From assembly GCA_965214835.1 (NCBI GenBank), contig CBDCCK010000002.1, positions 1,248,001 to 1,312,000 on the forward strand: a stretch of DNA of 64,000 bases, in the 5' to 3' direction. How positions within the stretch are numbered: the stretch's first letter is position 1; every line of letters begins with the position of its first letter. The translations under genes were made by a program, and so were the position numbers. Shown here one piece after another: positions 51,211-55,292 of the stretch. A model generated the notes under the pieces. That model worked only from the letters and a program-made list of their open reading frames with translations. It had not been told where the DNA came from and did no database searches. This stretch comes from Nitrosopumilaceae archaeon. Its GTDB lineage: Archaea > Thermoproteota > Nitrososphaeria > Nitrososphaerales > Nitrosopumilaceae.

Positions 51211-52578
51211 TTATGTGGTGCCTCTGGGAAGGCCAGAGATCAGGGACTTGGCTTTAGATACATAGTTTCTCATCAGATCGTCCAGCTTTTCCTGGGAACC
51301 TGCCTCGGCATATACCCGAACAATGGGCTCGGTGCCGCTGGGTCTGATCATCACCCATTCCCTTGGGCCAGACGAGATCTTTATTCCGTCGGTGGTGTCA
51401 GAGCCGGGAAACTCGGAGCTGAGGCAATCAACAAGCCGCGCTGCCTGCTCCGGCGTGCACTGGATCTTGTCCTTGGTTGTGTATGAGGGTGGCAGGGTGC
51501 CCATCAGATCGGCAACAGTCATCCCAGATGAGGCCAGTAGATCAAGCATTAGTCCCAGTGCCATCACGCCATCGCGGACTTGGTTGTGCTTTCCGTACAT
51601 GAACCCCCCGTTTTCCTCAAAACCCAAAACTGCGCCAGTCACAACCATCTTACGGGAGATCTCCACACTGCCAACCTTTGTTCGAATCACAGAGGAATCG
51701 AATTGTCTTGCGATGGCCTCAATGGCGGTGCCTGAATTCAGGCAGGTTACAACCTTGGAGCCGGGGCTGTTTTGCAAGATATGACGTGCAAGCAACAGTG
51801 CGGATCGGTCTCCGGTCATGACTTCCCCCTTGTTATCGCAGAAAATACTCCTGTCGCCGTCGCCGTCAAAGGCGATTCCCAAGTCCGCGCTATTCTCCCT
51901 GACGGATTCGGATAGTTCGGACAGGTTTTGCGGCGTGGGCTCAGAACCCCTACCCGGAAAGCTGCCGTCGATGTTCCCGTTTATTGCAACGATGTTGCAG
52001 TCCAAAAGGCGGCAAAACTCGGGTGCGGCCACTGCCTGTGCACCGTTTCCCAGATCCAAAACAACTGTAAACTGCTTTGATTTGATTTTTTGAGAGCTTA
52101 TTTGTGAGACGATGTTTTTCAGATAGACGGGGATGGCACCAGGCTCCTCTGAGGTTTTTCCAAGGGCATCAGAGTACGGACTCCAATTTCTTTTAAGGTA
52201 AAGATCCTCGATGATCTTTTCATCATCCCGGGAGATCTCTACGCCGTCAGACGCACAGGGCTTGATTCCGTTGTACTCGGGAGGGTTGTGAGATGCAGTT
52301 ACCATGATCCCACCTGCGTACCCAAGTTTTTTTGTGGCAAACTCCAAGCACGGGGTAGGAACGAGACCTGCGTTGCTACAGTCCAGACCATGGGCGTTCA
52401 GAGTGGCACATACGGTTCTGGCAATCAAGGGGCTAGATGTTCTGCCGTCATAACCGACCAGGATTGGCCCCCTTCGGACAAATGACGAAAACGAGGAGAT
52501 TAGATCGTGGATCATCTCCAGGGTGAGATCCTTGCCAAAGACCCCCCGCACCCCATTGGTTCCAAACAACTTTCCCAT
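51211..52578 (-). CDS. Phosphohexomutase (GlmM/PMM-PGM family)
   Basis: FGTNGVRG, TASHNP, DGDGDR, RPSGTEP. Confidence 0.92.
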   Translation of the reverse strand: MGKLFGTNGVRGVFGKDLTLEMIHDLISSFSSFVRRGPILVGYDGRTSSPLIARTVCATLNAHGLDCSNAGLVPTPCLEFATKKLGYAGGIMVTASHNPPEYNGIKPCASDGVEISRDDEKIIEDLYLKRNWSPYSDALGKTSEEPGAIPVYLKNIVSQISSQKIKSKQFTVVLDLGNGAQAVAAPEFCRLLDCNIVAINGNIDGSFPGRGSEPTPQNLSELSESVRENSADLGIAFDGDGDRSIFCDNKGEVMTGDRSALLLARHILQNSPGSKVVTCLNSGTAIEAIARQFDSSVIRTKVGSVEISRKMVVTGAVLGFEENGGFMYGKHNQVRDGVMALGLMLDLLASSGMTVADLMGTLPPSYTTKDKIQCTPEQAARLVDCLSSEFPGSDTTDGIKISSGPREWVMIRPSGTEPIVRVYAEAGSQEKLDDLMRNYVSKAKSLISGLPRGTT

Positions 52579-52624
52579 GTATCGTCTCAACAATAGATAA
52601 ATTTGTCTTTATTGGCGTCTCCAT

Positions 52625-52709
52625 GCGGGAGTTGCCAAGCCTGGTCAAAGGCGCAGGGCTTAGGACCCTGTCTTTCAGGAGTTCGTGGGTTCGAATCCCA
52701 CCTCCCGCA
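52625..52709 (+). tRNA. tRNA-Leu(TAG)
   Basis: Cloverleaf, CAGGG-CTTAGGA-CCCTG, long variable arm. Confidence 0.93.
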
Positions 52710-53319
52710 TACATCAAACCCCAGTGGTTGAAAATGTACGCTTTATGTGCCACCTGTATGGTGGTACTTACATCCATCCGCGGCTCTGCACGTATGGAAT
52801 TCTGCATGCCAAGGCCCCATGAGACGGAGGCCACAAGGAACAGCAGTACACTTCATCCATGGTAAAAACCCCCGCCGGTAACACGGTGATGTTCCTTTCG
52901 TCTTCTGATCCGTGCCTAGGCCGGGCTGTGCTTTATAGCTAACGCTAGCAACACGCACGTACCATTGTGCGGGTGGTGGGGCAGGATGTGATCCTACGCC
53001 GTCCCTGCCAGCTCGGTTATCCTCTTGATCTTCTTTTTGTACAGGGCGTCGCTGCGCGACGAGGACAGAGTCTTTGTCGTCAGCATGGGCCAGATTATCC
53101 TGAGCATCTTGTTTGCAACATGCGTTATCGCTATGACGTGGATGTTGCCGTTCCTTTTGCGAACCCTCTCGTAGAACTCCTTCATCCTGTCGTCGTACTG
53201 TACGGCGACGTTGGCTATCTGGATCATCAGCCAGTTGATCCTGCGATTTGCATCCTTTTTCATGTGGCCGTGGTACTCGCGGTCACCCGACTGGTACACC
53301 CTTGGACACAGGCCGGCCC

Positions 53320-53431
53320 AGGACACAAGATGGTTCGGTGATGGAAACCGAGTTATGTCGCGAATTGCACAGAAGGCCTTTTTGTCGCCGTAGGACACAA
53401 GATGGTTCGGTGATGGAAACCGGGTTATGTC
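53320..53431. repeat. 40-bp direct repeat enclosing a 32-bp insert
   Basis: 53320-53359 vs 53392-53431, one mismatch. Confidence 0.9.
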
Positions 53432-53519
53432 CCCGATCTCTGCTAGCAGCAGCATTGCAGCAAACGAGTCTATCCCCGTCATGCTCAGCAGTATCCTGGC
53501 ATATTCGCTGAGTCCTGCC

Positions 53520-53630
53520 TGTCTTCCTATGTCCTCCCCTGCCTGGTCTATCTCCGCAAGCCATGCCTCGTACATCCTCAACACATCATCGATGTCTTCC
53601 TATGTCCTCCCCTACTTGGTCTATCTCTGC
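53520..53630. repeat. 38-bp direct repeat enclosing a 35-bp insert
   Basis: 53520-53557 vs 53593-53630, three mismatches. Confidence 0.85.
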
Positions 53631-54254
53631 TGTGACAGATGCAATACTCCTGGTGCAGCTTGCCAGTATTCTGTTGTCGTTTGGCATGTCCAGTTTTGTC
53701 TCGGAAAGCTTTCGTATGGCCTTCCTGGAGTACATCGTGGATGCGTCTATGGCTATGTCGTACTTGTCAAGCCAAGCTGTGCAGCCCGTTTACGACTGAG
53801 GTCCTGTCCTGTACAAGCCGTATCCTGTACCTCATCAGCTCCCTGACATCCCTCATGTCTGGAGGGGACACGTAGCAGCGCGGCATGATTCCGGCCCTGA
53901 GCGTTTCGGCTATCTTCCTTGCGTCTATGGGATCAGTCTTTACACTGGTCTCCGATATTATCTTCATCTTGAGGGTGTTTGCCAGCAGTATGGGGATGTG
54001 CTGCTCCTCGAATGCCCTGAATGTCTTTAGCCACATGTTACCCGTTGACTCGCATGCGGCCTGGCACTTTTTGTACTCTTTTTTCAGCCTTGCTGCAAGC
54101 TTTGCCTCCTTGTACGTGTTGTCATACGAGCCCTCCTCTAGCACGTGTCCTTTGGAATCCACAACGCACACCGCATTTTCTCTTTCCAATGTCTATTCCT
54201 ATGCTTTTCAATCCTTTTCTCTCAACCTCCTTCCGGATATGGTTTGATAGATCA

Positions 54255-54390
54255 GAAGCTGCAGTCATCCATCAGTGCGCGTAGCACAGGAACACAACAG
54301 CGCGGATATCCCCATTCAACTGAGTGCACAAAGCACATGAAAATGAAGGGGTTGATCCATCACCCGGACTACGGCGGGGGTGTTTTTATC
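54255..54390 (-). ncRNA. Predicted IS110 bridge RNA
   Basis: 5' hairpin plus two stem/internal-loop/hairpin modules whose loops match the target (CATTTTC, AGTTGA) and the donor junction (TGTGTTC, ATGGATGA). Confidence 0.8.
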
Positions 54391-54452
54391 ATGTGTTCAA
54401 CTACTAAACCTGGTTGAAGAATTAATAAGGCAATTTTGCAAACCATACCACG

Positions 54453-55292
54453 TTGAAAACGACGGTGGGAATTACGGTGGTTGGAAAAGACAGGGAGGGG
54501 ATAGTCGCCGCATTTACGAACTTTGTGTTTGGGCAGCAAGGCAATGTAGAGAAGGTCAGCCAGAATGTTGTCAAGGGCCTGTTTGGAATGTACCTAGAGG
54601 CGTCATTTGGTAAAAAAATCAATGTCAAAAGTTTTGATCAGGAGCTGCAAAGACTTGCCAAGACGGAAAGAATGGAGGTCAGCACCCACCACGAATCAGA
54701 ATCGCAGAAAAACATTGCAGTCTTTGTGACCAAGGAACCCCACTGCTTGGAGTTACTGCTAAAAAACCAGTCCAAGCTAAGGGGCAAGATTGCAGTCATA
54801 GTGGGAACCGAAAAAACGCTAGAGTCGATGACCAAAAAGGCAGGGGTACCGTTCATCTGCGTAGAGGAGCGCACGCAGGCCAAGGCAGAATCAAGGCTGA
54901 TTGACATTTGTAAAAAATACGAGGTGGGCCTGATACTGCTGGCAAGATACATGAGGATTCTTACGCCAAATTTTGTGTGGCGGTATCCAAACAGGATCAT
55001 CAACATTCATCCGTCGTTGCTGCCGGCATTTCCCGGTGCAATTGCATACGAGCAGGCGTTTGAAAGGGGGACGAAAATTATCGGGGTGACATCACACTAT
55101 GTTACAGAGAACTTGGATCAGGGACCCATAATCTTCCAGGACGCGTTTGATGTTGGCTCCAGTGACACACTGGAAACAATAAAGAAAAACGGACAAAGGC
55201 TGGAGGCTACCACGCTTTTCAGAGCGGCCAAACTACACCTAGAAAACAAGTTAGAAGTGAATTGGAGAAAGGTCCACGTCAAGTTCAAGTGA
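54453..55292 (+). CDS. purU: Formyltetrahydrofolate deformylase
   Basis: ACT domain, LARYMRIL, INIHPSLLPAFPGA, LDQGPII. Confidence 0.92.
   Translation: MKTTVGITVVGKDREGIVAAFTNFVFGQQGNVEKVSQNVVKGLFGMYLEASFGKKINVKSFDQELQRLAKTERMEVSTHHESESQKNIAVFVTKEPHCLELLLKNQSKLRGKIAVIVGTEKTLESMTKKAGVPFICVEERTQAKAESRLIDICKKYEVGLILLARYMRILTPNFVWRYPNRIINIHPSLLPAFPGAIAYEQAFERGTKIIGVTSHYVTENLDQGPIIFQDAFDVGSSDTLETIKKNGQRLEATTLFRAAKLHLENKLEVNWRKVHVKFK

Follow-up and report, generated by a model that had tools for sequence, protein, structure and literature searches.

A probable bridge-RNA gene in the left end of a decayed archaeal IS110/IS1111-family insertion sequence

The question raised by this locus is whether a short non-coding region ahead of a broken transposase gene in a Nitrosopumilaceae archaeon encodes a bridge RNA (seekRNA), as an earlier note on the DNA had proposed. 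The window analyzed here is the 64,000-nt stretch from position 1,248,001 to 1,312,000 of contig CBDCCK010000002.1 (GCA_965214835.1), and the genome that holds it (G000) amounts to 3.22 Mb in two contigs, C1 and C2. Judged from the comparison of copies and relatives, the region is very probably a bridge-RNA gene in the left non-coding end of a decayed archaeal insertion sequence (IS) of the IS110/IS1111 family. The essence of the proposal, two internal loops with the target loop preceding the donor loop and four guides sharing one core, is supported, since the guides covary with the flanks and element ends and the stems covary as well. The motifs that the note had listed all lie where it placed them, on the minus strand.

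A search of the genome for copies matched the element at 67 places, 11 of which, the window copy among them, are full-length. Comparison of the copies sets the element as TG-AACACATG ... CCATGGA-TG between its flanks and therefore places the window copy at 52854-54399; with the ends so placed, the joined ends would read ATGGA-TG-AACACAT, the reverse complement of the junction ATGTGTTCATCCAT given in the earlier note. Because occupied and empty sites of the B type (targets of one of the two subfamilies described below) can be compared, the shared core is fixed as exactly TG, 2 nt, and insertion proceeds without target duplication, the empty site CCTGT-TG-CATAAC becoming CCTGT-TG-[IS]-TG-CATAAC. 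The longer core suggested before, TTCA/TGAA, has to be given up; TGAA occurs only where an A-type target continues with AA. A subterminal inverted repeat is present in all 13 of the 13 aligned element types over 10-32 aligned columns, and its sequence varies by lineage yet remains inverted. In the window copy it spans 22 columns with one 2-nt gap and one mismatch. An A/T-rich box within the left repeat, about 25 nt before the closing helix P1 of the RNA, may speculatively be regarded as a candidate archaeal TATA box. The features of the element itself are as follows.

52854-54399, minus strand: whole IS copy of the IS110/IS1111 family, decayed, 1546 bp including TG at both ends; ends from comparison with 10 other full-length copies
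54398-54399, minus strand: left copy of the core dinucleotide TG; occupied sites read left target-TG-AACACA... and ...ATGGA-TG-right target, and the uninterrupted B-type site CCTGT-TG-CATAAC
52854-52855, minus strand: right copy of the core dinucleotide TG, from the copy comparison and the element table
54372-54393, minus strand: left subterminal inverted repeat CATGATAAAAACACCCCCGCCG, from local alignment of the right end with the reverse complement of the left end
52858-52877, minus strand: right subterminal inverted repeat CGGCGGGGGTTTTTACCATG, from the same alignment

Between the left inverted repeat and the transposase gene lies the putative RNA region, whose parts in the window copy are listed from its 5' end.

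54361-54382, minus strand: CACCC/GGGTG hairpin (CACCC 54382-54378, GGGTG 54365-54361), present and poorly conserved, with its CACCC arm inside the left inverted repeat
54353-54361, minus strand: 5' strand of closing helix P1, GATGGATCA, from covariation and RNAalifold
54310-54351, minus strand: putative target-binding loop hairpin, outer stem CCCC/GGGG, inner stem GTGC/GCAC; parts CCCC 54351-54348, tt-CATTTTCA-t 54347-54337, GTGC/GCAC 54336-54324, tc-AGTTGAA-t 54323-54314, GGGG 54313-54310
54337-54347, minus strand: 5' side of the target loop, TTCATTTTCAT, complement of A+TG+AAAATG
54314-54323, minus strand: 3' side of the target loop, TCAGTTGAAT, equal to left flank AGT+TG+AA, with 2 nt deleted relative to the intact sister copy
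54257-54302, minus strand: putative donor-binding loop hairpin, outer stem CGCTGT/GCAGCT, inner stem GTGC/GCAC; parts (C)GCTG(T) 54302-54297, TGTGTTC-ct 54296-54288, GTGC/GCAC 54287-54275, tg-ATGGATGA-ct 54274-54263, GCAGC(T) 54262-54257
54288-54296, minus strand: 5' side of the donor loop, TGTGTTCCT, complement of left-end G+AACACA
54263-54274, minus strand: 3' side of the donor loop, TGATGGATGACT, equal to right end ATGGA+TG+A
54246-54254, minus strand: 3' strand of closing helix P1, TGATCTATC, from covariation and RNAalifold

The conserved RNA core comprises 116 nt (54246-54361). The region had been correctly recognized, and its boundary needs moving, the 3' strand of P1 at 54246-54254 falling just outside the 54255-54398 first assigned. 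The two loops are built alike. Each 5' side begins with a guide of six bases, continues with a pair of bases that face the core (CA in loop 1, CC in loop 2), and closes with U ahead of the inner stem; each 3' side has a guide of five bases followed by UG, a further two bases, and U ahead of the outer stem. It is to the sense (top) strand of the open reading frame (ORF) that the 5' sides are complementary, the 3' sides having the sequence of that strand, an arrangement that agrees with the claim that the guides, relative to IS621, read the strand opposite to the ORF. The minimum free energy fold of 54230-54420 contains both internal-loop hairpins within the outer helix.

Relatives of the element are numerous enough for the structure to be examined comparatively. 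When 201 genomes of the same class were searched at the protein level, 28 of them, G000 counted, gave matches at E<=1e-30, and a large protein database yielded 939 relatives at E<=0.001, the nearest outside G000 being 62% identical. The same left-end layout accompanies intact genes in G152, G012, G036 and G148 (49-62% identity, several copies each) and is found in single elements of G064, G175, G129, G138, G093, G067 and G197 (38-51% identity). Homologues of 29-36% identity (L032, L041, L045, L047, L048) had no layout recognizable by eye. The G117 relative (43% identity, more than 10 copies; L031, L063-L066) has loop-like motifs about 200 nt further upstream, with extra sequence before the gene. 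In two G012 loci, L056 and L058, both within copies of another repeat, the first 8 nt of the left end (AACACATG) are missing, and the left flank TTCATT-TG, which matches the target guide, directly abuts the inverted repeat.

Structural conservation was scored over six helices in an alignment (A1) of 21 left ends from 11 genomes, which holds 21 of 23 references, a G000 fragment at 504218 and the G138 element with its long insertion having been dropped. Five of the six helices are well kept. P1 is paired in 92.3% of cells and has changes on both sides in seven of eight counted pairs; the loop-1 stems are paired in 96.4% (outer) and 100% (inner) of cells, and those of loop 2 in 93.7% (outer) and 97.6% (inner). 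Over all helices 89.4% of cells pair, against 78.8% in shuffles, none of 500 shuffles reaching the observed figure, and helices slid out of place as controls pair in 27-53%. Both-side changes occur in 20 of 31 pairs, a count equalled by 0/500 shuffles, and covariation ran ahead of all 500 shuffles on four of five measures. RNAalifold, given no preset structure, returned the same five helices, namely P1, both outer stems and both inner stems. The covariation across homologues that the earlier note had called for therefore upholds five helices in 21 sequences from 11 genomes. The helices contain 23 G.U pairs against 8 A.C pairs, an excess that speaks for an RNA of ORF sense; the geometry speaks for it too, since in each loop the two guides have their 3' ends at the core, as they do in IS621.

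The table of guides takes in 35 elements and 11 genomes and contains 21 different loop-1 guide pairs. It leaves out G175, whose contig stops before the right end, a divergent fifth G152 copy (L055), the G117 copies, and G000 fragments without a right end (655667, 10110, 2772763, 2928846, 2915632, 504218 and shorter ones). In loop 2 the 3' side equals the right end of the element at a mean of 4.86 of 5 positions, and for complementarity between 5' side and left end the mean is 5.03 of 6. The right end changes together with the loop-2 3' side, with ATGGA in G000 and G197, ATAGG in G152, G012 and G148, ATAGA in G036, G064, G129 and G138, and ATGAG in G093 and G067. At the other end, AACACA pairs with UGUGUU and AATGCA with UGCGUU, and the left ends ACTTTA and ACCTTA accompany guides whose reverse complements are TCTTTA and TCCTTA. 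From these sequences, the putative donor guides plainly track the element ends across genomes.

The loop-1 guides behave toward the flanks as the loop-2 guides behave toward the ends. Among the same 35 elements, the five pre-core bases of the loop-1 3' side equal the left flank at a mean of 4.49 of 5 positions, compared with 1.75 when types are mispaired, and complementarity of the six 5'-side bases to the right flank averages 4.31 of 6, compared with 2.07; none of 10000 permutations at the level of guide types reached the observed sum. The G093 right-target count of 1/6 is an artefact of an alignment gap, GGAC matching there by eye. These matches also bear on whether the structure could be a mere 5' leader that regulates translation or stability of the transposase, the guide matches being incidental. 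It does stand directly upstream of the GGAGGT/TTG start, and no T-run terminator is read from the sequence between the two. A leader function would, however, leave unexplained the four target and donor guide matches (0/10000 permutations), and equally the miniature, ORF-less derivatives described below that keep the RNA region; we give it hardly any credence.

Two subfamilies within G000 illustrate the relation between guide and site most directly. Subfamily A (the window copy, 514647 and 1519219) has a loop-1 3' side ..GTAGTTGAA.. and a 5' side TTCATTTTCAT (reverse complement ATG-AAAATG-AA), giving the guides GTAGT and, as reverse complement, AAAATG; the left flank GTAGT-TG is present at all three copies and the right flank TG-AAAATG only at the intact copy. 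Subfamily B (eight copies) has a 3' side ..CCTGTTGAA.. (TTTGT in one) and a 5' side CGTTATGCAT (reverse complement ATG-CATAAC-G), and its guides CCTGT and reverse-complement CATAAC accompany sites of the form (C/T/A)CTGT-TG ... TG-CATAAC. Read as guides, these sequences make the two subfamilies, with different loop-1 guides in different sites, a case of natural reprogramming, and the same pattern of guides differing with site recurs in G152 and G036. Uninterrupted targets exist for both: the A-type site GTAGTTGAAAATG is found 23 times in G000, and the B-type site CCTGTTGCATAAC four times exactly and nine times by 11-mer. The A sites are both terminal inverted repeats of an element of about 1364 bp, and several B-type sites also bound larger elements. 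One representative of each target element encodes a DDE transposase (PF01609), for example at C2 506940-508303 (L079, about 1364 bp) and 189797-191184 (L080, about 1388 bp). The terminal repeats occupied by subfamilies A and B thus belong to two different DDE-transposase ISs.

Could these hairpins and end-matching words instead act as DNA, as recombinase sites, with the flank matches produced by repeated insertion or gene conversion? The left end does hold one feature at the DNA level, the subterminal inverted repeat, many of the copies lie in copies of one repeated target, and no transcript was seen among the sequencing runs searched. Against this, the stems pair through double changes and with the G.U excess already given; the guides, although internal to the element, vary together with the flanks across subfamilies and 11 genomes; and homologous recombinases are reported to use such RNAs (Durrant 2024 PMC11208160; Siddiquee 2024 PMC11187229). 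We regard a purely DNA-level role as very improbable, and a bridge RNA as the far better account.

In 31 of the 35 elements the two bases that follow the core on the 3' side of loop 1 equal the left end of the element itself; in two they equal the right flank. By sequence, this is a handshake-like feature with the logic of the handshake guides of IS621 (Hiraizumi 2024, PMC11208158). A reciprocal arrangement in loop 2, where the two post-core bases of the 3' side would equal the right flank, was seen in only 3 of 35, and we make no claim of a handshake in the donor loop.

Several observations weigh against the bridge-RNA reading, the first being that, among sequencing runs, the stretch was traced to four of unknown kind from one study and to none listed as RNA. 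The fold of the window copy, the other check called for, does contain both hairpins and falls short of significance, with z = -1.19 and an equally good fold in 23 of 200 shuffles; since a single copy folds no better than shuffles, the window copy alone proves little. An Rfam 15 scan of 52300-54900 (E<=10) returned a tRNA-Leu and chance-level matches, none resembling a bridge RNA. The CACCC/GGGTG hairpin, put forward as part of the RNA, is paired in 58.7% of A1 cells and absent from the RNAalifold consensus, and has one arm in the inverted repeat; it is not supported as an RNA feature. The 5' side of loop 2 places CC opposite the core TG, which leaves a single core base paired. The copies in any one genome are related, and the counts therefore overstate their independence. 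As to the target, the left flank of the window copy is matched by AGT+TG+AA, 7 contiguous nt, with the left target guide short by 2 nt relative to the intact copy; at the right flank only TG+AA fits, at 2 of 6 positions. The statement that the first loop does for the target what the second does for the donor consequently stands for the left half in this copy and fails for the right. Other misfits on the right side are G012_L057 (0/6), the G000 miniature derivative 639991 (0/6), G000_1519219 (2/6) and the miniature derivative 3124520 (1/6). As far as sequence allows, the RNA of the window copy is slightly decayed and well matched to the left flank only, and the guide/flank match beyond chance rests on the comparison of copies, not on the window copy.

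We present a hypothetical mechanism in which expression of the RNA, its binding by the recombinase, the circular intermediate and the chemistry are inferred from work on IS621 and ISEc11/ISEc21. The ORF strand would give rise to an RNA of about 116 nt or more, to which the recombinase would bind. This RNA might have its own promoter or might be cut from the transposase leader; in the IS621 papers the bridge RNA is described as transcribed from the junction of right and left ends (RE-LE) into the left end (PMC11208160). The RNA would fold into the closing helix around two internal-loop hairpins. Loop 1 would hold the target, its 5' side pairing with the ORF-sense strand of the core TG and right target and its 3' side with the other strand of the left target and TG, followed by the 2 nt that match the left end of the element. 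The element would be excised as a circle with the junction CCATGGA-TG-AACACATG, and, with the target in loop 1, its joined ends would be taken up by loop 2 in like geometry. A DEDD/Ser recombinase would then exchange strands at the shared TG, and the circular form would be inserted without target duplication. No contig bridging the empty site or the circle junction was found across 52600-54600 in four runs of unknown kind from one study, whose short pieces break at the repeat. A loose contig end at 52850 runs into an uninterrupted terminal repeat, and its 10 differing letters in 80 mark it as a paralogue.

The window copy is unable to move on its own, having a broken gene and a left target guide that has been shortened. 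The two features of the gene are these.

52994-54211, minus strand: broken transposase gene, with a DEDD_Tnp_IS110 piece at 53767-54189, a Transposase_20 piece at 52994-53584, frameshifts and two internal duplications of about 73 and about 72 nt
54225-54230, minus strand: GGAGGT, a motif resembling a ribosome-binding site, preceding the TTG start at 54209-54211 and kept as GGAGGTG in relatives

The pieces match DEDD_Tnp_IS110 (PF01548) at E 3.7e-21 and Transposase_20 (PF02371) at E 4.9e-28, and about 140 nt separate the stop from the element end. The protein was earlier called dead and is so: frameshifts, an extra G shared with other copies and the two duplications break the frame, and the catalytic D, E, D, D and Ser are no longer in one open frame. 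The extra G (CACAGCTTGGCTTGAC versus CACAGCCTGCTTGAC in the intact copy; window about 53770-53790, minus strand) closes the transposase frame at TGA and appears to be common to 10 of the 11 full-length copies, as seen directly by alignment in four and inferred from ORF lengths in the remainder. Beyond it, the window copy has the duplications (about 73 and 72 nt) and further indels. The intact sister copy at C2:514649-513238 is the only one in G000 with a long open frame, 359 aa from TTG (P0001), with the recombinase gene at C2:513380-514459. Its profile matches are PF01548 at 7.9e-30 and PF02371 at 2.5e-24, and in a HMMER alignment to the IS621 chain it retains IGID, CES, KTDxxDAR and YxSG at the aligned places; the catalytic residues, which in IS621 are given as D11, E60, D102, D105 and S241 (Hiraizumi 2024, PMC11208158), are thus kept. 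A sequence search of the PDB with the recombinase found only distant matches, to IS621 (E 1.3e-8 for P0001) and ISCro4.

Derivatives of about 370 bp without an ORF also exist in G000, retaining the left end with the whole hairpin region and the right end, alongside many further fragments. They are found at C2:639989-640363, 2955988-2955616, 3124522-3124154 and 2139577-2139947 (L070, L071, L077 and L073); their guides are in part unlike those in full-length copies, with flank matches in only some cases. Either a recombinase provided in trans allowed the defective copies carrying the shared G to multiply, or frameshifting carries translation through the site. The frameshift shared by 10 of 11 copies and the ORF-less derivatives that keep RNA and ends together suggest movement in trans.

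Several features are shared with IS621 (Durrant 2024 PMC11208160; Hiraizumi 2024 PMC11208158). In both, the RNA is encoded upstream of a DEDD/Ser recombinase, within the left end; the target loop precedes the donor loop, and each loop has two guides on opposite strands that overlap at a 2-nt core; the two donor-matching nucleotides of the target loop resemble the handshake guide, and the target is not duplicated. In IS621 each loop's 5' side pairs with the bottom strand (left target or donor) and the 3' side with the top strand (Durrant 2024, PMC11208160), an order that this family reverses, its 5' sides pairing with the ORF-sense strand. The core is CT in IS621 and TG here, and the present elements have long subterminal inverted repeats, a closing helix round both loops, an archaeal host and a distant protein (E 1.3e-8). 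Flipping the DNA makes loop 1 resemble IS621 in all the respects checked: its 5' guide has 6+2 nt, its 3' guide 5+2 nt, and a further two nucleotides match the donor, not the target. The reversed order, remarked on in the earlier note, is confirmed; its novelty was overstated, since the IS1111 seekRNAs described in Siddiquee 2024 (PMC11187229) already have it.

With those seekRNAs (ISEc11, ISPa11, ISKpn4; PMC11187229) the family shares a top-strand complement placed 5' of the bottom-strand match, subterminal inverted repeats (about 7-17 bp there), site- and orientation-specific insertion, and natural reprogramming among relatives. It differs in that the IS1111 elements so described have a long non-coding region (NCR) with the RNA downstream of the transposase gene tnp (PMC11187229), and the RNA here is upstream; and in that the donor nucleotides of many IS1111 orthologues are placed in a multi-loop (Durrant 2024 PMC11208160), compared with a simple internal loop here. 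Whether the family is a true IS1111-group lineage whose RNA gene has moved upstream, or an IS110-group lineage with a flipped donor site, seems to us evenly balanced. The subterminal repeats of 10-32 aligned columns and the top-strand complement coming first, as in IS1111 seekRNAs (PMC11187229), speak for IS1111. So does the nearest named IS, ISHvo10 (30% identity, E 2e-37; Haloferax volcanii pHV4, NC_013966.1), which Siddiquee 2024 (PMC11187229) discusses, with ISAcp5, among diverged IS1111 relatives with long NCRs on both sides; ISMtsp17 is named there as an IS1111 relative with an upstream NCR. Against IS1111 stand the upstream RNA, the simple internal donor loop as in the IS110 group (PMC11208160) and the protein length of 359 aa, versus the 330-350 aa quoted for IS1111 transposases (PMC11187229). 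The C-terminal motif GL-P----SG was considered as an IS1111 marker and rejected, IS621 having the same letters in the alignment. Placement through named plasmid matches was likewise abandoned, most being named just "IS110 family transposase" and the few named ISs not being assignable.

ISHvo10 has a 12-bp subterminal inverted repeat and the right end ...CCATAGG-TG, and its upstream non-coding region holds CATAGGTGAA, which equals right end plus core. It is haloarchaeal and very divergent, and the comparison was one of sequence words. On the opposite strand, about 650 bp upstream of ISHvo10, is a gene for an RNA-guided endonuclease of the TnpB family (L078, NC_013966.1, 1-29). With some hesitation, for we hold it slightly less than an even chance, we propose that an archaeal clade of Nitrososphaeria-type and ISHvo10-like haloarchaeal elements represents a third layout: the RNA upstream as in IS110, the guide order of IS1111, long subterminal repeats, and a compact RNA of about 116 nt with two geometrically identical loops closed by one helix, specificity traveling with the RNA alone in G000. 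On this reading the frameshifted copies and the ORF-less derivatives would be moved in trans by the single intact recombinase, every one to the site that its own RNA specifies. The habit of inserting into terminal repeats may be set, by description only, beside IS4321/IS5075, bacterial members of the IS1111 family that target Tn21-family transposons.

The site of the window copy, TAGTAGT-TG-AAGTGTAC, is a variant terminal repeat of a remnant of about 140 bp that resembles a miniature inverted-repeat transposable element (MITE).

54400-54406, minus strand: left target half TAGTAGT, resembling a terminal repeat of a DDE-transposase IS
52722-52853, minus strand: right target half AAGTGTAC... and the rest of the MITE-like remnant of about 140 bp, compared with a 23-copy consensus
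52722-52739, minus strand: second, inverted copy of the terminal repeat, GTACATTTTCAACCACTG, the end of the MITE-like remnant

The remnant (52722-52853 plus 54400-54406), bounded by two inverted A-type terminal repeats, adjoins a tRNA-Leu gene (52624-52710, plus strand). The neighboring genes encode a formyltransferase/ACT protein, tRNA-Leu, a phosphoglucomutase-type enzyme, a creatininase, an LSM protein and ribosomal protein L37e, and are an archaeal setting. The smaller contig C1 of the genome is 13,188 bp long with 52.5% G+C.

Archaeal IS110/IS1111 elements are already known (PMC11187229; 10.1101/2024.06.21.599552), and 662 archaeal IS110 recombinases have been catalogued in a preprint (10.1101/2024.06.21.599552). 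A further preprint, of 2026, clusters 181,180 intergenic sequences beside bacterial and archaeal IS110 recombinases and describes numerous covariance models that depart from IS621 while still covarying with both target and donor (10.64898/2026.10.21.760802). A search of the literature on archaeal IS110, Nitrososphaeria IS110 and archaeal bridge recombinases, supplements lying outside it, found no paper on an archaeal bridge RNA. Bridge-RNA catalogues may well include this family already, and Supplementary Table 5 of Durrant or the seekRNA supplementary tree may list this clade or ISHvo10. Since RNA-guided recombination by IS110/IS1111 elements has been known since 2024, no new class is opened, and because the family is possibly in existing catalogues we file it as a further example of a known mechanism.

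The value of the family is that of a natural data set, in which sister elements within single archaeal genomes have different target guides and matching sites, donor guides track element ends across genomes, and defective and ORF-less copies keep the RNA. It offers a recombinase of 359 aa together with a putative RNA of about 116 nt whose four predicted guides are directly readable. Its mixture of the features that separate IS110 from IS1111 bears on the movement of the RNA gene from one element end to the other. Archaeal IS110 recombinases are, in addition, of interest for the kinship with Nop5 and the C/D-box guide RNAs that has been proposed for them (10.1101/2024.06.21.599552).

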